This document shows, piece by piece, positions 44,697 to 57,330 of a stretch of 64,000 nucleotides of DNA. Position numbers and translations under genes: made by a program. Each line of letters opens with the position of its first letter. Within the stretch, counting starts at the first letter, position 1. A model generated the notes under the pieces. That model worked only from the letters and a program-made list of their open reading frames with translations, did no database searches and had not been told where the DNA came from. The DNA is from Lachnospiraceae bacterium (GTDB lineage: Bacteria; Bacillota; Clostridia; Lachnospirales; Lachnospiraceae): contig JAILID010000154.1 of assembly GCA_024695465.1 (NCBI GenBank), positions 1,681 to 65,680 of the forward strand. The letters run 5' to 3'.

Positions 44697-46058
44697 ATGC
44701 TTATGGAAAAAAGACAGGAAAACAAAATGGGCGTCATGCCCGTAAAGAAGCTCATCATCAGCATGTCCCTGCCGATGATGATCTCGATGCTGGTGCAGGC
44801 GCTCTATAATGTCGTGGACAGCGTGTTTGTCGCCCGGGTGTCGGAAGACGCGCTTACCGCTGTCACCCTCGCCTTCCCGCTGCAGAATCTCATGATCGCG
44901 GTGGGATCCGGAACAGGGGTCGGCGTGAACGCCCTCCTGTCCAGGGCGCTGGGGGAAAGAAAGTTCAAGCGGGCGGATAAGGCGGCCAACATGGCCCTTT
45001 TTCTGTCCTTCTGCAATTCGATCCTCTTCCTTCTGGTCGGGCTTTTCATTTCCGGGGCCTTTATCCGCTCACAGACGGAGAATGCCGCCATCGCGGGGAT
45101 GGGGGAGGCCTATCTTAGGATCGTTAACTGTTTCTCCCTGGGGCTGATGTTCCAGATGATGTTCGAGCGGCTCCTGCAGTCGACCGGGCGGACGGTGCAG
45201 AGCATGGCCTCCCAGCTTACCGGGGCGATTGTCAACATCATTCTCGACCCGATCATGATCTTCGGCTGGTTCGGTCTTCCGGCCATGGGGGTCGCGGGCG
45301 CGGCCTACGCGACCGTGATCGGCCAGACGACGGCAGCCGTTATCGGGCTTGTGCTGAACGTAAAGACCAATACGGATGTTCATTTCTCTCTTGCGGACAT
45401 TGTCACGCCGGAGGCGGATATCATCCGGAAGATCTACCTGGTCGGCGTGCCTTCGATCCTCATGATGTCCATCGGCTCGCTTATGACCTATATGATGAAC
45501 CGGATCCTGATCGTCTTCTCGACGACGGCGACGGCGGTCTTCGGGGTCTACTTCAAGCTCCAGAGCTTCTTCTTCATGCCGGTATTCGGCCTCAACAACG
45601 GGCTGATTCCGGTGCTGGCCTACAATTACGGGGCCAGAAAGAAAGACCGCATCTACGAGGCGCTGCGTTTTTCATTTATACTGGCCATATCGATCATGCT
45701 GGCCGGTACGCTGATTTTCCACCTCTTTCCGGAGGAGCTCCTGGGCTTCTTCAACGCCTCTGGGGATATGCTTGAGCTGGGGGTCCCGGCGCTGCGGATC
45801 ATCTCGCTGAATTTCCCGCTGGCGGCCTGCGGCATCGTGATGGGCTCGATCTTCCAGGCCTTCTCCCGGAGCATGAATTCGCTGGTCGTGTCGGTCTGCC
45901 GGCAGATCCTGGTCCTGATCCCGGCTGCCTGGCTGCTTTCAAAGACGGGTTCGGTCATCAACGTCTGGTGGGCTTTCCCCATCTCGGAAATTGTGTCCCT
46001 TGTGATATCGGTGGTCCTGTTCCGCCGGCTCTACGACGAGATCGTAAGGCCCATGTAA
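44697..46058 (+). CDS. MATE family efflux transporter
   Basis: PVKKLIISMSLPMMISMLVQALYNVVDSVFV and 12 predicted hydrophobic helices. The start is ambiguous (ATG at 44697, 44703 or 44727); the listed 44619 start overlaps ftsY and is unlikely. Confidence 0.85.
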   Translation: MLMEKRQENKMGVMPVKKLIISMSLPMMISMLVQALYNVVDSVFVARVSEDALTAVTLAFPLQNLMIAVGSGTGVGVNALLSRALGERKFKRADKAANMALFLSFCNSILFLLVGLFISGAFIRSQTENAAIAGMGEAYLRIVNCFSLGLMFQMMFERLLQSTGRTVQSMASQLTGAIVNIILDPIMIFGWFGLPAMGVAGAAYATVIGQTTAAVIGLVLNVKTNTDVHFSLADIVTPEADIIRKIYLVGVPSILMMSIGSLMTYMMNRILIVFSTTATAVFGVYFKLQSFFFMPVFGLNNGLIPVLAYNYGARKKDRIYEALRFSFILAISIMLAGTLIFHLFPEELLGFFNASGDMLELGVPALRIISLNFPLAACGIVMGSIFQAFSRSMNSLVVSVCRQILVLIPAAWLLSKTGSVINVWWAFPISEIVSLVISVVLFRRLYDEIVRPM

Positions 46059-46245
46059 AATAGAAGACGGCTTTTGAGGGCTGGGCTTTATGGTTTGCGG
46101 AAAGAAGCAAATGTAAGCCGGCCCTCTTATTTCTTCCACCCCCAAAGCCGATATTGCGGCGTCATATCCGGATACATCGAGACAGTTTCCGTGGTTGATG
46201 ATGAGTTTTTGGGACGGTGAATAAGCATAAGGAAGTGTATTGAAA

Positions 46246-46896
46246 ATGAAAACCAGAGAAGAGGCCCTTGCATATGGATTGTCCTTCCCGGACACATATC
46301 AAGACGCCCCGTTTCACGATGCCAACTGGCAGCTTGTCAGATACAAAGGAAATAAGAAGGCGTTCCTGTGGACTTATGAACGGGAGGGATATATCAACCT
46401 GAATGTGAAGGCAGCGCCGGATAAAGTCTTTTTTTGGCGCGATATATATGAGTCGGTTATTCCGGGATATCACCAAAACAAAGAGCATTGGAATACCCTT
46501 ATTCTTGACGGGAGTGTTCCGGATGATGACGTTAAGATGATGATAGCGGAAAGCTATGAGCTGATCTCGGATAGTTCGTCCAAGAGGATCTATGAGGCGG
46601 TGAAGAGGATTCCGAGAGGATGCGTTGCTGGCTATGGTCAGGTTGCAGAGGCCGCAGGGGATCGAAAGATGGCCAGAGCTGTGGGCAATGCGCTTCATAG
46701 GAATCCGGATCCTTCTACGATACCATGCCATCGTGTAGTGAACGCAAAGGGTGAGCTTGCCGGAGAGTATGCATTTGGCGGTGCATGGAAGCAAGCGGAG
46801 CTCCTCATGGCCGAGGGAGTGGAAGTGGTAAATGGAAAAGTAGATCTGGATAGATTTCAGTGGGAAGAGTATAGAGGCGGCGAAAGCAAACGATAA
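46246..46896 (+). CDS. Fusion protein: MmcQ/YjbR-like domain + O6-alkylguanine-DNA alkyltransferase (MGMT) C-terminal active-site domain
   Basis: The N-half, with HWNTLILDG and AESYELI, resembles YjbR. The C-half, VKRIPRGCVAGYGQVA....ARAVGNAL..NP....IPCHRVV, has the PCHR active site. Confidence 0.75.
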   Translation: MKTREEALAYGLSFPDTYQDAPFHDANWQLVRYKGNKKAFLWTYEREGYINLNVKAAPDKVFFWRDIYESVIPGYHQNKEHWNTLILDGSVPDDDVKMMIAESYELISDSSSKRIYEAVKRIPRGCVAGYGQVAEAAGDRKMARAVGNALHRNPDPSTIPCHRVVNAKGELAGEYAFGGAWKQAELLMAEGVEVVNGKVDLDRFQWEEYRGGESKR

Positions 46897-47141
46897 GGAT
46901 GATCTGCATACGAAGGTGGAGCGGTATCTTTTAGATGATAGCGGAGTACTGGAAACGGATGAAGGGTTTATTTGGAAATAAAATGCTGGATATTCAGCTG
47001 GAGGAGCACGGGCTGCCGCGCATCATATCGTGATTATAAGGTCACTTCGAAAGCGACCTTTTTTGAAAAATAATAGCGTATAATGAGCCAGGAACAAAGG
47101 AAATCCCCGAAGGGGCGGTGAAGATAAGGAGGGCGATCATT

Positions 47142-47816
47142 ATGCGTAAAGGTTTAACAGAAGTTGTTTTTATCCTGGACAGAAGCGGTTCTATGAGCGG
47201 GCTGGAAGCAGATACCATCGGTGGTTACAATTCGATGCTGTCCAGGCAGAAGAAAGAAGAGGGAGAGGCGGTCATTTCAACTATCCTCTTTGATGATCAG
47301 ACGGAAATCCTGCATGATCGGAAGAGCCTTGATCAGGTGGAGCCGATCACTGATAAGGATTACTATGTGAGAGGCTGTACGGCTCTTCTTGATGCGGTAG
47401 GCGGAGCGATCCACCATATCGGTAAGGTACATAAGGAAATGCCGGAAGAGGAGAGGCCGGAGAAAACGTTGTTCATCATCACGACCGATGGTATGGAAAA
47501 TTCCAGCAGGCAGTATTCCTATGATAAGGTTAAGAAGATGGTGGAAAAGAAAAAGAAGAAGCATCATTGGGAGTTCATTTTCCTTGGAGCTAATATTGAT
47601 GCCGTCGAGGTTGCCGGAAGATTCGGAGTCGCGGCAAACAGGGCGGTTCGATATGAATGCGACAGCGCCGGGACAGCACTGAACTTTGACGTGATGTCCA
47701 AGATGGTCAGCCGTGCGAGAGCCTGTGAGAGCGCAGGTGAGATGGAAGATTGCTTCGATGATGGAGGGATGCTTGCTTCGATTCAGGCGGATTATGAAAA
47801 GCGTCATAGATCATGA
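47142..47816 (+). CDS. Stand-alone cytoplasmic von Willebrand factor A (vWA) domain protein
   Basis: AAGGAGGG RBS. MIDAS residues are in VFILDRSGSMSG, GCTALLDA and IITTDGMEN. There is no signal peptide. Confidence 0.8.
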   Translation: MRKGLTEVVFILDRSGSMSGLEADTIGGYNSMLSRQKKEEGEAVISTILFDDQTEILHDRKSLDQVEPITDKDYYVRGCTALLDAVGGAIHHIGKVHKEMPEEERPEKTLFIITTDGMENSSRQYSYDKVKKMVEKKKKKHHWEFIFLGANIDAVEVAGRFGVAANRAVRYECDSAGTALNFDVMSKMVSRARACESAGEMEDCFDDGGMLASIQADYEKRHRS

Positions 47817-48119
47817 AAGGTCATTAATATCACATGAAGCAATACAGGACAGGAATGTATGGCGGGAAGTTTCTTCCGTTTCATGCGGAGTATTTATCTG
47901 ATCATGGCCGTCATCGGTTTGGTGAACTGGGCTCGGCTGAATAAAGACAGGAATGCTGAAAATGAATAAAAGCGAAGAAATTTTGACTGGTCGCCTCACA
48001 GGTGACCGGTCAAAAAGAATGATGGGAAGAAGAGAAGGATTCCCGCAGGAATAATCTATCCTAACACACTGGGTTTCCGTATCATCTTCAGAGTGAGGCA
48101 CGATTTGGGCATAATTGTG

Positions 48120-48148
48120 TTGAGCGGGCTCTGTGCATATGGTATACT
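48120..48148 (+). promoter_or_regulatory. Sigma-A promoter of the 4-gene cassette (TTGAGC-17-TGgTATACT)
   Basis: The hexamers, 17-nt spacer and TGn extension were read directly. It lies 27 nt upstream of the ATG at 48175. Confidence 0.65.
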
Positions 48149-48174
48149 TTTCGTACGAAGGGAGGCCTTAATCG

Positions 48175-48363
48175 ATGCAGATTATTCCAATGAGAGATTT
48201 AAGAGATACCAATGCCCTGTCCGAGAAAGCGCATGCTAAACTTGAACCAATTTTTGTTACAAAAAACGGGTATGGCGATCTTGTAGTCATGAGTATCGAG
48301 ACGTACGAGCATATTACGGGTTCTTCTGCAGCTGAAAAAGCGGATGCTTCAGCTGAGTCCTGA
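48175..48363 (+). CDS. Phd/YefM-type antitoxin-like protein
   Basis: 62 aa. MQIIPMRDLRDTNALSEKAH..EPIFVTKNGYGDLVVMSIETYE matches the Phd/YefM N-terminal fold pattern. The RBS is GGGAGG. Confidence 0.7.
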   Translation: MQIIPMRDLRDTNALSEKAHAKLEPIFVTKNGYGDLVVMSIETYEHITGSSAAEKADASAES

Positions 48364-48379
48364 CCGGGAGGTGTTTTGA

Positions 48380-48595
48380 ATGAGCAGGGAATCCTTTTCA
48401 TTTGTCATTTATATGATTCATGCCTGTGCAAATCGATGGAGTAAAGTTCCATCCGATGTTTATAAACTGTTACAAAAAACAGGATGTATAGATAATTATC
48501 TGGTTCCGCATTATGATATTCTTCATACTCAGGGAACCGATTATATTGTTGACGACATTGAAGAGTATCTTGGAATCAGAGGGGTGAGTATATGA
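48380..48595 (+). CDS. DUF3791-like small protein (copy 1)
   Basis: 71 aa. The family was recognised from memory (FVIYMIHACANRW ... YLVPHYDILHTQG.DYIVDDIEEYL). It is immediately upstream of, and overlaps, the DUF3990-like gene. Confidence 0.6.
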   Translation: MSRESFSFVIYMIHACANRWSKVPSDVYKLLQKTGCIDNYLVPHYDILHTQGTDYIVDDIEEYLGIRGVSI

Positions 48596-49071
48596 TTGTT
48601 TACCACGGCTCAATCATTACAGTAGACAGCCCGGATGTTCAGCACTCCTATCGTCCGCTTGATTTTGGCAAAGGCTTTTATGTGACATCCGTTCGTGAAC
48701 AGGCTGAGCGCTGGGCCAGAAGAAAAGAAGCTCTTTTTGGGAGTGATAAGGCAATTATTAATGTTTACGAGATGAAGGAAAACACAGATGGATTAAAAAT
48801 CAAATCATTTGCCCCGGATTTGATGGATTGGATTGACTTTGTATGTGGGTGCCGTGATGGAAAGGCCGAATATCAGAAATATGATCTGATTTACGGTAAG
48901 GTCGCCAATGACCGCGTTTTTCGGGTTGTGGATATGTATCATACCGGCATCTGGGATAAAGAAAGGGCGTTGAAAGAAATCAAAGTCTATCCTACGTATG
49001 ACCAGATTGCGTTTATTACGCAGGAAGCTATCGATAGGCTGTTGGTATTCAAGTCTTTTCGGGAGGTGTAA
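48592..49071 (+). CDS. DUF3990-like protein with PARP-like H-Y-acid (ADP-ribosyltransferase-fold) signature
   Basis: 159 aa. There is an ATGA overlap with the preceding gene. Motifs are VYHGS (res 3-7), FGKGFYVTS (res 25-33), KYDLIYG (res 96-102) and YDQIAF (res 136-141). Confidence 0.65.
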   Translation: MIVYHGSIITVDSPDVQHSYRPLDFGKGFYVTSVREQAERWARRKEALFGSDKAIINVYEMKENTDGLKIKSFAPDLMDWIDFVCGCRDGKAEYQKYDLIYGKVANDRVFRVVDMYHTGIWDKERALKEIKVYPTYDQIAFITQEAIDRLLVFKSFREV

Positions 49072-49073
49072 CG

Positions 49074-49304
49074 GTGAGCGAGGATGTATTAGAACGAGTA
49101 TACCAGGAGAGTCTTGAAGAGCGAATCATCTCTTACCTTTCAGAAGAAGAAAAGATTTCTCTTGAAGAGGCAATGAATATCTATTATAACAGCAAGCTTG
49201 CAAATCGAATACACCGGGGAGAGTACGGAATCCAGTATCTGGATTATAAAGTCCTGGTTCAGATCTTACGTGAAACAGAGCCGGACCTTGTACGGAAAGC
49301 GTAA
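49074..49304 (+). CDS. DUF3791-like small protein (copy 2)
   Basis: 76 aa. The GTG start lies 2 nt after the previous stop, behind GGGAGG. YGIQYLDYKVLVQILRE parallels copy 1. Confidence 0.55.
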   Translation: MSEDVLERVYQESLEERIISYLSEEEKISLEEAMNIYYNSKLANRIHRGEYGIQYLDYKVLVQILRETEPDLVRKA

Positions 49305-49338
49305 TACGGTACCGTAGGGGAAAGATATATTTAAAACA

Positions 49339-49368
49339 GCTGCAGAAATGCCATCTGCAGCCTTTTTT
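49339..49368 (+). terminator. Rho-independent terminator of the cassette
   Basis: gctgcaga-aatgcca-tctgcagc followed by c + TTTTTT. Confidence 0.8.
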
Positions 49369-49499
49369 GACGATAACATTGATAACAGCGACAGTTACAG
49401 GCAGATTTCCCAGCAATCCGACTTTGATGCCTTCTGATGAGGAATATAACGGGTATTTCGGCACTAAACTCAAATTACTGCCGAAATACCGGAGCGGAA

Positions 49500-52798: not shown

Positions 52799-55700
52799 TT
52801 AGGCGTCTTTGTCAAGCTGCATCTTTTTTTCCGCTGTGGTCAGCATCAGCTTGATCCGGTTCAGCTGGTTGACTTCGGAGGCGCCCGGATCGTAATCGAC
52901 CGCGGCGATATTGGCCTCGGGGTAGCGCCGGCGGATCTCCTTGATGACCCCCTTGCCCACGATGTGGTTGGGCAGGCAGGCGAAAGGCTGGATGCAGACG
53001 ATGTTGGGGACGCCTGCGTTTATGAGCTCCAGCATCTCGCCGGTCAGGAACCAGCCTTCACCGGTCTGGTTGCCGGTCGAGACGATGGGGGAGGCCATCC
53101 TGGCCAGATCCGCGATGTCCGCCGAAGGGCTGAAATGCCTGCTCCGCTTGAATTCCCTGTTGGCCGTGGTCCGCAGGAGCTCGATGAGGCGGATCCCGGC
53201 GTTGGTCGCGATTTTGGAGGATTTGGAGAAGCCGAGGTTGTCCACCTTGAAGTTCAGGTTGTAGAACGAATAGTTGAAGAAGTCGATGAGGTCGGGAACG
53301 ACCGCTTCGGCGCCTTCCTTCTCCAGCAGCTCCACCAGGTGGTTGTTGGCCGCCGGGGAGAACTTGACCAGGATCTCGCCGACGATGCCGACCCGGGGCT
53401 TGACTTCGTTGGTTATCGGAAGGTTGTCGAAGTCATGGATGATGGAGCGGCAGAGGCGGTTGTACATAACCGGATTCTGCCTCTTCCCGGTGAGGAAGCT
53501 GATGCAGCGGGTCGTCCACTTCTCATAGAGGTCGTTGGCGGAGCCTTTAACCTTCTCATAAGGCCGCATCCGGTAGAGGCATTTCATGAGGATGTCCCCG
53601 AGCACGATGGAGTAGGCCAGCTTCACGATGGAATTCAGCGTGATCTTAAAGCCCGGCTGGGGCTCAAGCCCGCTTAAATTCAGGGAGATGACCGGAACCT
53701 GGCCGAGCCCGGCCTTCTTCAAGGCCCTCCTTATGAAGCCGATATAGTTGGAAGCCCGGCAGCCGCCGCCGGTCTGGGTCATGATGACCGCTACTTTATC
53801 CGTATCGTATTTGCCGGAAGTCAGCGCGTCCATGATCTGGCCCACGACGAGGAGCGAAGGATAGCAGGCGTCGTTGTTGACGTATTTGAGCCCGGTGTCG
53901 ACCGCGTGCCGGTTGTCGTTGGGCAGCACGACCATGTTGTAGCCGCAGGAATTGAAGGCCGGCTCCAGCAGGCGGAAATGGATCGGCGACATCTGGGGGC
54001 AGAGGATCGTGTAATCCTTCCGCATCTCGTCGGTGAAGACGACCCGGTCGAAACGGGAGGAACGGATCTTCCTCCTGGTCTTCTTATCCTTCCGGACCTT
54101 TATGGCCGCGATGAGGGAGCGGATCCGGATCCGGGCCGCGCCCAGGTTGTTCACCTCGTCGATCTTAAGGCAGGTGTAGATCTTCCCGCTGCCGGCCAGG
54201 AGCTCCTGGACCTCGTCGGTGGTGACCGCGTCGACCCCGCAGCCGAAGGAATTGAGCTGGATGATGTCCAGGTCGTCCCGTCCCTTTACGAAGTTGGCCG
54301 CCGCGTAGAGGCGGGTATGGTACATCCACTGGTCGTTGACCCGGATCGGCCTCTCGATGGTTCCGAGATGGGAGATCGAATCTTCCGAGAGGACCGCCAT
54401 CCCGTAGGAGTTGATGAGCTCCGGGATGCCGTGGTTGATCTCCGGGTCGATATGGTAGGGACGTCCGCACAGGACGATGCCGTGGCGCCCGGTCTCTTCC
54501 AGGTATTTGAGCGTCTCCTCGCCCTTCCGCCGGATATCCTCGCGGCTCCTGATGAGCTCAAGCCAGGCCTTTTGGGCGGCTTCCCGCACTTCATTTTCCG
54601 GAAGATCGGAGAAGATGTCCGCAAGGCGGTTCGTGATGACCTTCTCATTGGTCAGGGCCAGGAAGGGGTTCATGAAGCGGATGGAGGGGTCCTTCAGCGC
54701 TTCGACATTGTTCTTGATGTTCTCCGCGTAGGAGGTGACGATGGGGCAGTTGTAGTGGTTGACCGCTCCGTCGAACTCCTCCCGCTCGTAGGGGATGCAG
54801 GGGTAGAAAATGAACTTCACGCCCTTCTTCAGCAGCCACTCGACGTGGCCGTGGGCCAGCTTGGCCGGATAGCATTCGGATTCGCTCGGAATGGACTCGA
54901 TGCCCATCTCGTAGATCTTGCGGTTGGAGCTGGGGGAGAGGACCACTTCATAGCCCAGCTCGTTGAAGAAGGTGAACCAGAAGGGGTAGTTCTCGAACAT
55001 GTTCAGCACCCTGGGAAGGCCGACCTGTCCCCTCGGGGCCTCCTCTCCGTGCTTCGGGATGTAGCCGAAGATACGATCGTACTTGTAGTCGTAGAGGTTG
55101 GGGAGGTTGTCCTTGTTTTTCTTCTTTCCCAGGCCCCTTTCGCAGCGGTTGCCGGAGATGTAGCGGGTCCCGTTGCCGAATTTGTTGATCGTAAGGCGGC
55201 AGTTGTTGGTGCAGAGCCCGCAGCGGGTCATGGAGGTCGTGTAGGTGAAATTCTGCAGCTCCTCCCCGGAGAGCATGTGGGACCTGGCCCGGCTGCCCCG
55301 GCGTTCCCTGGCAATGAGCGCGGCCCCGAAGGCCCCCATGATGCCTGCGATGTCCGGGCGGATCACCTCGCAGTCCGCGATCCTTTCAAAGCTTCGGAGG
55401 ACGGCGTCGTTGTAGAAGGTCCCGCCCTGGACGACGATGTTCCTGCCGAGCTCGGATGCGCTGGAGACCTTGATGACCTTATAGAGGGCATTCTTGATGA
55501 CGGAATAGGCGAGCCCGGCGGAGATATCCGCTACGGTCGCCCCCTCCTTCTGGGCCTGCTTGACCTTGGAATTCATGAAAACGGTGCAGCGGGTCCCGAG
55601 GTCGATCGGATTTTGGGCAAAAAGGGCGGCTTTGGCGAAGTCCTGGACCGAATAATTCAGGGTCTTCGCGAAATTCTCGATAAAGGAGCCGCATCCGGAG

Positions 55701-57088
55701 GAGCAGGCCTCGTTCAGCATGACGTCGTCGACCGCCCGGTCCTTGATGCGGATGCACTTCATGTCCTGGCCCCCGATGTCGAGAATGCAGTCGACGTCCG
55801 GGTTGAAAAATCTGGCGGCATAGTAATGGGAGATGGTCTCCACTTCGCCTTCATCCAGGTTGAGGGCCGCCTTGATGAGGGCTTCCCCGTAGCCGGTGGA
55901 GCAGGAGCCCGCCAGATAGGCGGTCTTTGGGATGAGGGAGAAGATCTTCCTGACGGCGTCGAGGGAAGTCTGGAGGGGATTGCCGTTGTTGCTCCCGTAG
56001 GTCGAGTAGAGGAGGGTGCCGTCCTCCCCGATGAGGGCGGTCTTGGTTGTGGTGCTCCCCGCGTCGATGCCGAGGTAGACCCGTCCCCGGTAGGAGGAAA
56101 GGTCGCCCTTCTTTACCTGGTAGCGGTCCTGGCGGGCCTTGAAGAGCCGGTAGGCCTCCTCGTCCTTGAAGAGCGGCTCGAGGCGGGAGACTTCAAACTC
56201 CAGCTTGATCCCGCGGTCAAGCTTGTCCTTCAGCTGCTTCAGGGACGTCTTCTCCATGCCCTCGACATAGGGGATTTCTTTCGCCCGCGCCGTGCTTTTG
56301 GCCGCGTTCACCGCTTCGAAAGCGGCGCCCTGGGCCGCGAAGAGGTGGGAGTGGTCGGGGACCAGCGTATGCTCATCGTCGAGATCCAGGGTCTTTATAA
56401 AACGGACGCGCAGCTGGTCCAGGAAATGGAGAGGGCCGCCCAGAAAGGCGACATGGCCGCGGATGGGTTTGCCGCAGGCCAGGCCGGAGATGGTCTGGTT
56501 CACGACAGCCTGAAAGATGGAAGCGGCCAGGTCTTCCTTGGTCGCTCCCTCGTTGATGAGAGGCTGGATATCGGTTTTCGCGAAGACTCCGCAGCGGGCC
56601 GCGATCGGATAGATGGATTTATGGGAAGCGGCGTAGACGTTGAGGCCGGCCGCGTCGGTCTGCAGCAGATCCGCCATCTGGTCGATGAAGGAACCGGTGC
56701 CGCCCGCGCAGATCCCGTTCATGCGCTGCTCGATGTTGTCGCCTTCAAAATAGATGATTTTCGCGTCCTCGCCTCCGAGCTCGATGGCCACGTCCGCCGC
56801 CGGGCAGCGATGCTTAAGGCAGGTGGATACAGCGATAACCTCCTGGACGAACGGCACGCCCAGGTGCGTGGCCAGGGTCAGGCCGCCCGATCCGGTGATG
56901 GCGGGAGAGACGGAAAGGTCGCCGAGGCTTTCCAGCGCTTCTCCGATCAGGCTGGCACAGGTCTCCTGGATCTCGGCGTAGTGGCGCCGGTAATCCGAGA
57001 AGAGCAGGTTTTCATTTTCATCAAGCACGGCGATCTTGACGGTTGTGGAACCGATGTCGATGCCGAGCGTGCAAAACTTTTCACTCAT
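52799..57088 (-). CDS. Giant fusion: two BcrAD/BadFG-type (2-hydroxyacyl-CoA dehydratase activator) ATPase modules + HgdB/DUF2229-like dehydratase-related domains
   Basis: The acetate/sugar-kinase fold appears twice ([14 protein letters not shown] and [15 protein letters not shown]), followed by a ~750-aa C-terminal region typical of acyl-CoA dehydratase activase-related proteins. The ATG at 57088 lies behind GAGG. Confidence 0.85.
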
Positions 57089-57330
57089 AAAAGAACCTCT
57101 GAAAACACAATTTAAGGCGGGGTTGGAAGCCGCCATTTCGGATATTATAGTTCGGAATCGGGAAAATGACAAGCAACTTTTACGGAAGCTTGTATATTTG
57201 GCAAGCATTCCTTGTTTGCGCAAGGCGTATTTTATTGACTTTTCGGGGCGGCTGCGCTATTATAGGCCGGACAGTAAAAGGGACCGGGCCGCGGGCCGGA
57301 CCGCTGAGAGGGGGATGGATATTGAGGATC

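Follow-up and report, generated by a model that had tools for sequence, protein, structure and literature searches.

An intact copy of the candidate defense module PDC-M13, with a predicted H-Y-D ADP-ribosyltransferase-fold protein, in a Lachnospiraceae genome

The window (the whole 64,000-nucleotide stretch of Lachnospiraceae DNA that was analyzed) contains a compact, intact cassette of ≈1.2 kb with its own putative promoter. The features of the cassette, in window positions, are as follows:

48120–48148, forward strand: putative sigma-70-type promoter (TTGAGC, 17 nt, TATACT, with an extended -10 TG), from a consensus scan
48150–48159, no strand: 10-bp palindrome TTCGTACGAA, a candidate operator for the Phd-like protein, read from the sequence
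48175–48363, forward strand: gene for a Phd/YefM-like protein of 62 aa, from the open reading frame
48380–48595, forward strand: gene A, DUF3791 protein of 71 aa (PDC-M13A), from Pfam and PADLOC
48592–49071, forward strand: gene B, DUF3990 protein of 159 aa (PDC-M13B), from Pfam, PADLOC, AlphaFold2 and Foldseek
49074–49304, forward strand: gene C, all-helical protein of 76 aa with a GTG start (PDC-M13C), from PADLOC
49339–49368, no strand: hairpin resembling an intrinsic terminator (49339–49361) followed by a T-run, from a terminator scan

A preliminary description of this DNA had listed the same four open reading frames, and their lengths and junctions were confirmed: the A and B genes share a 4-nt ATGA overlap, and gene C starts 2 nt 3′ of the gene B stop codon. 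The Phd-like gene lies 16 nt upstream of gene A, and the promoter is common to both. This promoter had been called near-consensus, which is too strong: the scan gave 9/12 consensus matches, and the five promoter-type sites found, against 3.9 expected, are not statistically unusual. The promoter sequence is kept in a 94%-related locus (L083), in which homology to the window begins at ≈48085, and a promoter at 48120–48148 is plausible on these sequence grounds. The palindrome TTCGTACGAA is perfect and sits between the -10 box and the ribosome-binding site. Its GTAC core is one that we take to resemble YefM/Axe-type operators, and L083 has a 1-nt deletion inside it. The terminator described earlier was recovered by the scan; its hairpin was detected on both strands and sits between the convergent cassette and metH. 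It is not common to related loci, in which homology stops at the gene C stop codon.

The cassette had also been placed in a low-G+C patch. Its G+C content is indeed low (0.41–0.43, versus 0.59–0.63 in the flanks), but the patch is composite: the stretch 46000–48085, at 0.47–0.49, holds unrelated genes. No flanking direct repeats, integrase or structured RNAs were found around the patch. The setting is one of core genes (rnc-smc-ftsY, MatE and metH) and not a defense island or prophage. Purifying selection acts on each of the four genes (dN/dS 0.05–0.14), and protein B of the window had no exact match in the contig index.

Genes A, B and C, contiguous and on the same strand, matched the PADLOC models for PDC-M13 (A, PDLC04434, E = 7e-21; B, PDLC04438, E = 1e-50; C, PDLC04444, E = 1.7e-6). 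The only PADLOC models matched by protein B were PDC-M13, PDC-M10 and PDC-M42, and none of the four proteins matched the CmdTAC or DarTG models in the PADLOC scan. PDC-M13 is one of 145 candidate PDC phage defense systems, which were defined by their embedding within RM, BREX or DISARM loci (Payne et al., bioRxiv 10.1101/2024.01.29.577857), and one survey recorded 3,324 occurrences of it (PMC13356809). The window copy differs from PDC-M13 in having the extra 5′ Phd-like gene and in not lying inside an RM, BREX or DISARM locus. It is a real, intact copy of a widespread three-gene candidate anti-phage module, and not a new discovery. The novelty implied by the preliminary description is not upheld, since the cassette corresponds to PDC-M13 and Pfam's ART (ADP-ribosyltransferase) clan already includes DUF3990 (PMC7955679); the ART reading was likewise available from the Tox-ART-HYD2 signature, and the Aravind group had already set out the H-Y-D clade together with its toxin-antitoxin context (PMC3482391, PMC5512222). 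A literature search found no published experimental function for the DUF3791/DUF3990 pairing, as had been supposed. DUF3990/DUF3791 cassettes are among the commonest candidate defense loci in rumen genomes and are also carried on common Bacteroides plasmids. The window copy raises no new question, but would be convenient material for addressing one that already exists.

The order A–B–C was found in ≈76 of 80 species loci from many phyla. Gene A is upstream of B in 76 of these loci (three of the four exceptions being contig ends), while gene C is downstream of B in 79–80/80. A and B overlap by 4 nt in 60/76 loci and by 7 nt in 6/76. No fourth conserved gene was present among 143 immediate neighbors. 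Judged by this synteny, the conserved unit is three genes, and not the four that had been proposed with the Phd-like gene included.

The Phd-like protein passes the Pfam PhdYeFM_antitox profile (PF02604) marginally, at 30.2 bits against a cut-off of 29.8, which bears out its earlier assignment, and falls just under the cut-off for the NCBIfam phd_fam family (TIGR01552; 20.1 versus 20.8). It covers PF02604 profile positions 1–61 of 74, so that the toxin-binding tail would be short or absent. No cognate toxin of the Doc, YoeB, RelE or ParE type lies beside the gene; the next genes are those for DUF3791 and DUF3990. We considered the possibility that the Phd-like protein is both the antitoxin and the DNA binder of an ART toxin, with the two small proteins as paralogous accessories. 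Such an arrangement would agree with the shared promoter and close spacing, with purifying selection on the Phd-like gene (dN/dS 0.105) and with the same gene arrangement in L083. However, the Phd-like gene accompanies the cassette in 1/80 species loci and in one 94%-identical metagenomic contig, and is missing from the other 79 species loci. A longer, distantly related Phd at another locus (L005) belongs to a neighboring remnant of a ParE/RelE-like gene. The shortened tail and the failure to detect protein C as DUF3791 (see below) also count against this four-gene model, which we regard as very improbable. By its distribution, the Phd-like gene is a lineage-specific add-on and not a conserved part of the system, and its product is possibly an operon repressor.

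Protein B belongs to DUF3990 (PF13151), with 160.6 bits against a cut-off of 32.2 (E = 3e-47) and residues 1–150 aligned to profile positions 1–150 of 152. The family had been named correctly beforehand, and the motifs MIVYHGS, FGKGFYVTS (25–33), KYDLIYG (96–102) and YDQIAF (136–141) were all found where they had been placed. A match to Pfam ART-PolyVal was weak (E = 0.003) and, at 18.7 bits, below the cut-off of 31.2. Sequence searches of the PDB with the protein B profile returned nothing meaningful, as did those with proteins A and C and the Phd-like protein. The AlphaFold2 model of protein B (pLDDT 88.9) found as its best Foldseek matches phage ART-PolyVal-like proteins (TM 0.57–0.58, probability 1.0); MuF fusions, polyvalent phage proteins and a cyanophage pre-ejectosome protein were also among its nearest structural relatives. 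These were accompanied by an Xre-RES toxin (9r35, probability 0.92–0.98) and VPA0770, and at lower ranks by cholera/LT toxin and PARP14 (rank 41, E = 1.7). Matches to solved ARTs were weak (TM ≈0.4, E 1e-3 to 1e-2).

The expected ART fold was borne out by profile, model and Foldseek, and the expected conservation of His and Tyr by an alignment of homologues. Among 90 diverse homologues, H5 was present in 87, Y30 in all 90 and D98 in 89, and the near-invariant positions were H5, D24, G28-F29-Y30, W80, R88, D98, D107 and Q138. Five of these elements, H5, D24, G28-F29-Y30, W80 and R88, each at least 91% conserved, make up the published Tox-ART-HYD2 signature of H, D, GFY, W and R (Zhang et al. 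2012, PMC3482391). Strands in the model at residues 2–7, 29–32 and 99–105 put H5 on strand 1 and Y30 on strand 2, with D98 where strand 5 begins, a placement that refers to predicted secondary structure and not to superposition. His on strand 1, Tyr on strand 2 and Asp on strand 5 is the configuration of the HYD2/polyvalent clade (Iyer et al. 2017, PMC5512222). The third catalytic position had been left between D98 and D137/Q138. D98 is favored by its conservation and strand; D137 is variable (D in 36/90 and N in 30/90 homologues), and Q138 is invariant but on strand 6.

Because D98 lies at the start of strand 5, we read protein B as an H-Y-D ART. On the model and the conserved residues, it falls among the ART-fold proteins of the H-Y-[E/D/Q] clade (Tox-ART-HYD2), and NAD+ binding and ADP-ribosyl transfer are predicted for it. 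The PARP-like signature seen previously holds at the level of this clade, but membership in the PARP family was rejected: there was no PARP Pfam match at E ≤ 1, Asp occupies the third position, and protein B is most closely related to the ART-PolyVal and Tox-ART-HYD2 domains. These share with protein B both the strand positions of H, Y and D and the H, D, GFY, W, R signature, and include its best structural matches, but there the domain is part of a giant virion-packaged or Rhs protein, whereas protein B is free-standing at 159 aa, with two small partners. We know of no member of the H-Y-D HYD2/ART-PolyVal clade with a known substrate.

The RES matches raise the alternative that protein B acts by consuming NAD+ and not by transfer, as a glycohydrolase or phosphorylase of the RES or MbcT kind; such an effector would stop growth by NAD+ depletion and be inhibited by A and C. 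The Xre-RES toxins and VPA0770 are its best small matches of solved structure, and a minimal protein without an obvious target-recognition domain would suit such a role. However, the RES active site is R-E-S and not H-Y-D, and in overall structure protein B comes closest to ART-PolyVal domains, for which transferase activity is predicted. Furthermore, those HYD1-type Rhs toxins that have been characterized are reported to be genuine transferases, with 23S rRNA and EF-Tu as their targets. We consider protein B unlikely to be such an effector. Arr enzymes are also minimal H-Y-D ARTs, and a viral protein annotated as a rifampin ART was a weak Foldseek match (rank 34, E = 0.036); protein B might on this basis modify a small molecule, such as an antibiotic or metabolite, and have no toxin role. 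We give this little credence: neither Pfam nor NCBIfam gave a match to an Arr family, and an obligatory pair of small partners, use as an Rhs toxin and a patchy, mobile distribution would not be expected of a resistance enzyme.

Protein A is a DUF3791 protein, as described (PF12668; 74.4 bits, cut-off 25, E = 7e-21), and has a dN/dS of 0.05–0.10. Protein C had been taken for a second DUF3791-like protein, which the searches did not support: it matched no Pfam family and gave no DUF3791 match at E ≤ 10, and its 120 listed close homologues were without any Pfam domain. When profiles built from the 80 species were compared with hhalign, the alignment of C with the DUF3791 family was collinear but not significant (probability 1–4%). 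A fused C domain touched DUF3791 faintly (E = 0.14), and both halves of a Bacteroides C–A fusion gave weak matches to the C-family HMM. At the sequence level, paralogy of A and C is remote and unproven. The AlphaFold2 model of protein C has six helices (pLDDT 90.1) and no match among PDB folds (best E = 5.5). A role for C as an HTH DNA binder was rejected, the HTH_39 match being weak (E = 0.03) and the confident model being without a PDB fold match. Neither A nor C has a recognizable antitoxin, DNA-binding, macrodomain or ARH fold. The gene A product is most likely the antitoxin or neutralizing partner, and gene order suggests that protein C is an obligatory third component.

Natural fusions join the components in two ways: B is fused to C in four proteins (P0034, P0171, P0189 and P0217), and on Bacteroides plasmids C is fused to the N-terminus of A, as in BF9343_RS21485 of pBF9343. 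Together, these fusions imply a physical association of all three proteins. CapRelSJ46-type fused toxin-antitoxins, in which the toxin fold is unrelated to that of B, offer an analogy for the B–C fusions, from which protein C could be a cis-acting inhibitory or sensor domain. Some B homologues were called as fused to HsdS fragments. A candidate A–B fusion (P0266; 4 bits, probability 10%) was not accepted.

The cassette is present on 86 plasmids, conjugative Bacteroides plasmids among them. Defense genes made up only a few of the 143 immediate neighbors, and the cassette was rare in phage genomes (7/50,697 records, five of which were fecal “Bacteriophage sp.” contigs without annotation). On one Clostridiaceae plasmid it directly follows the ParA partition genes. 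Insertion sites vary and tandem duplicates are present, while most copies are chromosomal and stand-alone, adjoining housekeeping genes. Phages carried no orphan A or C genes such as counter-defense might use; the single A match adjoins a B gene. The conjugative plasmids, the nearest structural relatives in MuF, polyvalent and pre-ejectosome proteins, and the B–C fusions, which would fit a holoenzyme, could also mean that the module is a tool of mobile elements, in which B modifies host proteins for element establishment and is non-toxic to the carrier, with A and C as specificity or regulatory subunits. This seems improbable, given the mostly chromosomal, stand-alone copies and the scarcity in phages, and given that a strict three-gene operon with a coupled small gene upstream is typical of toxin-antitoxin systems.

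The compact operon, the coupled genes and the patchy, mobile distribution with plasmid copies are those of type II toxin-antitoxin systems. The B–C and C–A fusions, the 4-nt A/B overlaps, the plasmid copies and the varied insertion sites favor a self-contained module of the toxin-antitoxin type, and this reading is strengthened by a Serratia Rhs effector whose toxin domain, at the C-terminus, is DUF3990 (PMC4524185). The toxin-antitoxin or abortive-infection reading proposed earlier is accordingly the best available, as a predicted module. In the form that we prefer, with somewhat better than even confidence, the three core genes form a self-contained conflict module that spreads horizontally, with B as an H-Y-D ART toxin kept inactive by A and C. 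Against this weigh the lack of a recognizable antitoxin-type fold in A and C, the weak Foldseek matches to solved ARTs, the core-gene setting in the window together with the few defense-gene neighbors elsewhere, and the B–C fusions themselves, since toxin-antitoxin fusions are unusual for classical type II systems. So does L060, from an isolate genome, which has a split A gene and an intact B. Across loci, disrupted genes numbered six for B versus two for A, which is no departure from the gene-length ratio.

Among named systems, the cassette resembles CmdTAC, an mRNA ADP-ribosylating anti-phage system of ART toxin, antitoxin and chaperone, in being a three-component operon around an ART toxin, which in the cassette is a predicted one; CmdTAC works by abortive infection of the toxin-antitoxin type (PMC11618068). 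The CmdTAC partners, however, are a SecB-like chaperone and an antitoxin with a chaperone-addiction tail, whereas A and C are helical proteins of ≈70 aa. Xre-RES, ParST, MbcTA and DarTG likewise set a small ART-fold toxin beside its neutralizer in a mobile, patchy distribution, and RES toxins rank high among the PDB fold matches of protein B. These systems have other catalytic signatures (R-E-S, R-S-E), and their antitoxins are Xre HTH proteins or macrodomains, neither of which is found in A or C.

In the conflict module that we favor, NAD+ would be bound by H5 and Y30, with D98, which opens strand 5, serving as the catalytic acid. Free B would ADP-ribosylate an essential macromolecule, or possibly only consume NAD+, leading to cell arrest. 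Protein A would be translated first, with translational coupling to B through the conserved ATGA overlap, and A, C and B would form a ternary complex in which B is held inactive. Of the two partners, A is the likelier direct neutralizer, while C may serve as a further inhibitory or sensing part, or as a subunit that confers specificity. B could be set free when the element is lost (addiction) or when a phage infects the cell (abortive infection). The present lineage has acquired at the 5′ end a truncated Phd-like DNA binder that lacks a toxin and is probably a repressor of the shared promoter, acting at the palindrome TTCGTACGAA.

A more speculative variant, which we consider doubtful, is that A and C are two very divergent copies of one small helical domain and together clamp an H-Y-D ART as a new kind of split antitoxin or sensor; this ART would act on a nucleic acid or translation component for which ADP-ribosylation has yet to be described. 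If so, PDC-M13 would be a mechanistically new and very abundant anti-phage system of the gut and rumen. The natural fusion variants indicate the likely protein contacts, and the conservation among homologues lists H5, Y30 and D98, and also D24, R88 and Q138, as targets for mutation.

The window cassette is genuine and intact, and represents a minor, Phd-headed variant of a system that has been catalogued but is uncharacterised. The cassette is made up of four genes:

48175-48363, + strand, Phd-like gene, 62 aa; Pfam PhdYeFM_antitox, 30.2 bits against a cut-off of 29.8
48380-48595, + strand, gene A, 71 aa; Pfam DUF3791, E=7e-21
48592-49071, + strand, gene B, 159 aa; Pfam DUF3990, E=3e-47; sub-threshold ART-PolyVal, E=0.003
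49074-49304, + strand, gene C, 76 aa, GTG start; no Pfam match

The preliminary description had placed all four ORFs exactly, and the ATGA overlap of A and B and the 2-nt gap from B to the GTG of C were both present. A Shine-Dalgarno sequence could be read before each gene, and a terminator-like hairpin lies at 49339-49361. Pairwise dN/dS relative to related cassettes was 0.05-0.14 for all four, indicating that these are real genes. The proposed promoter (TTGAGC-17-TATACT, with TG) scored 9/12, and comparable sites in the region were no rarer than chance. The minus-strand metH gene is followed, directly after its stop codon, by an inverted repeat at 49452-49490 (16-nt arms, 94% complementary, 7-nt loop), which probably serves as the metH terminator and is distinct from the cassette hairpin. 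The Phd gene and gene A share a 16-nt direct repeat, TGTTACAAAAAAC(G/A)GG (48255-48270 and 48468-48483), probably by chance.

The PADLOC PDC-M13 models matched A (E=7e-21), B (E=1e-50) and C (E=1.7e-6). PDC systems are 145 untested candidates, defined by their embedding in RM, BREX or DISARM loci (bioRxiv 10.1101/2024.01.29.577857), and PDC-M13 is among the commonest loci in rumen genomes (PMC13356809). We sampled 80 loci, one per species, from Lachnospiraceae, Selenomonadales, Treponema, Fibrobacter, Succinivibrionaceae, Verrucomicrobia, Bacteroidales and others, and searched them using a profile for each of the four proteins in the window. Gene A was present in 76 of them and gene C in 79-80, with the plain A-B-C order in 69. 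The A/B junction was a 4-nt overlap in 60/76 loci and a 7-nt overlap in 6/76, and the C start and the B stop were only a few nucleotides apart. No family recurred among 143 immediate neighbours of the cassettes; a few were HTH, ParE, type I RM or Gabija genes. The preliminary description was largely correct in its observations and partly so in its interpretation, but overstated the novelty, and we consider the cassette of moderate interest.

Tandem duplicates of the cassette also occur. A Lachnospiraceae-type contig (L081/L082, 5627-8714) carries two divergent A-B-C cassettes in tandem with a polysaccharide deacetylase gene between them, and an Acetatifactor MAG (L014, 7643-8089) has a second C-like ORF of 148 aa, ~1 kb downstream of the C gene in its cassette.

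Just one of the 80 species loci yielded a Phd-like gene. The same promoter, Phd gene and A-B-C cassette recur, in other genomic surroundings, on a metagenomic contig (L083, 94% identical), whose DNA is homologous to the window from ~48085 to the C stop codon. In L005 a longer Phd homologue precedes the remnant of a ParE/RelE-like gene, and thus belongs to a neighbouring toxin-antitoxin pair. In a rival reading, the Phd-like protein would be the antitoxin of the module. The profile match of the window protein spans positions 1-61 of 74 only, and no cognate toxin accompanies it; we read the gene as a Phd remnant without a toxin, specific to this lineage and now placed first in the operon. Its product is possibly the operon's repressor, and a perfect 10-bp palindrome, TTCGTACGAA, at 48150-48159, between the -10 box and the Phd ribosome-binding site, is a possible operator; the L083 copy has a 1-nt deletion.

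The cassette has a G+C content of 0.41-0.43, and the flanks ~0.60. It lies in a composite low-G+C patch beginning at ~46000, where a section at 0.47-0.49 (46000-48085), between cassette and host in value, contains two genes:

46240-46896, YjbR + MGMT-DNA-binding-domain fusion protein
47118-47816, vWA-like protein, 232 aa

Neither was matched by PADLOC models. The cassette sits among core genes, in the order pta-ackA, rnc-smc-ftsY, MatE pump, YjbR/MGMT-like, vWA, cassette, metH, tgt, with no recognisable defence genes among these neighbours. Further along, a 1474-aa ORF (52799-57223, -) overlaps a 1069-aa ORF on the opposite strand (53906-57115, +), which has no Pfam or PADLOC match.

An AlphaFold2 model of B, made with 49 homologues as input, was confident (pLDDT 88.9, pTM 0.83). 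Its best match among predicted viral structures was a 202-aa protein (TM 0.77, E=2e-12), followed by ART-PolyVal-like, polyvalent and MuF-fusion phage proteins (TM 0.5-0.58, probability ~1.0). Matches in the PDB were weak (TM ~0.4 or less), headed by a cyanophage pre-ejectosome protein, Xre-RES toxins and VPA0770, with cholera/LT toxins and PARP14 ranking lower. RES relatives consume NAD+, and B might likewise be an NADase effector, a rival to the transferase reading. Searching 1.8 billion cluster representatives gave 2,854 relatives of B. Across 90 aligned full-length relatives, with identity down to 33%, H5, G6, P14, D24, F25, G26, G28, F29, Y30, T32, Q37, A38, F73, W80, R88, D98, G102, A105, D107 and Q138 were near-invariant. 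The model has strands at 2-7, 29-32, 55-61, 70-72, 99-105, 135-141 and 151-158, which puts H5, Y30 and D98 on or at strands 1, 2 and 5, the H-Y-D configuration of polyvalent-protein ARTs and the Tox-ART-HYD2 clade (Iyer et al., PMC5512222). The HYD2 signature "H, D, GFY, W, R" (Zhang et al., PMC3482391) maps one-to-one to H5, D24, G28-F29-Y30, W80 and R88, and DUF3990 is already in the Pfam ART clan (PMC7955679). Together, these results bear out the ART fold with D98 as the acid; D137, another residue considered, is variable across the 90 relatives, and "PARP-like" holds at the clade level but not beyond. The ART reading itself repeats what databases and literature already say. A Serratia Rhs effector ends in a DUF3990 domain (PMC4524185). 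For Rhs ART-HYD1 toxins, 23S rRNA and EF-Tu are reported as targets. An Arr-like small-molecule ART is a rival that would share the fold.

C had been labelled a second DUF3791 protein, which we do not accept as shown: it belongs to no Pfam family, no Pfam domain was found in 120 close homologues among the matches listed, and profile-profile alignment of the A and C families was collinear and non-significant (probability 1-4%). Its model is confident and all-helical (pLDDT 90), with no match in the PDB. One fused C domain scored E=0.14 against DUF3791, and the C-family HMM weakly touched both halves of a Bacteroides C-A fusion, faint hints at the sequence level of a very remote A/C paralogy. 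Natural fusions are more telling. B and C form a single polypeptide in P0034 (a homologue 78% identical to window B) and three distant homologues, and Bacteroides plasmids and one fecal contig carry, upstream of B, a DUF3791 protein with a C-like domain joined to its N-terminus. These fusions argue that A, B and C would act as one complex. Three other DUF3990 homologues (P0258, P0261, P0263) were called as fusions to C-terminal fragments of HsdS-like type I restriction specificity proteins, which is consistent with cassettes lying inside type I RM loci, or with gene calls that read through.

A toxin-antitoxin-type module is the best reading of the cassette. B would be the H-Y-D ART toxin, and A the likelier neutraliser, since it is upstream of B and translationally coupled to it, while C may provide either a further inhibitory or sensor element or a subunit for specificity. 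The module might serve in addiction and/or abortive infection. We found no experimental work on DUF3990, DUF3791, HYD2, ART-PolyVal or PDC-M13 in the literature searched. Only seven phage records had the cassette or a B homologue: five unannotated fecal "Bacteriophage sp." contigs and two records of the same Geobacillus phage with a solo homologue. The cassette was found on 86 plasmid records, mostly of one Bacteroides/Phocaeicola family that includes pBF9343, and directly follows the ParA partition genes on a Clostridiaceae plasmid. In another rival reading, the module would not be toxic and would help a mobile element to establish itself. On Bacteroides fragilis pBF9343 (L084, NC_006873.1, 2555-4615), the genes for the C-A fusion and DUF3990 precede one for an 86-aa protein, which overlaps a zeta-toxin family gene, placing two toxin modules side by side.
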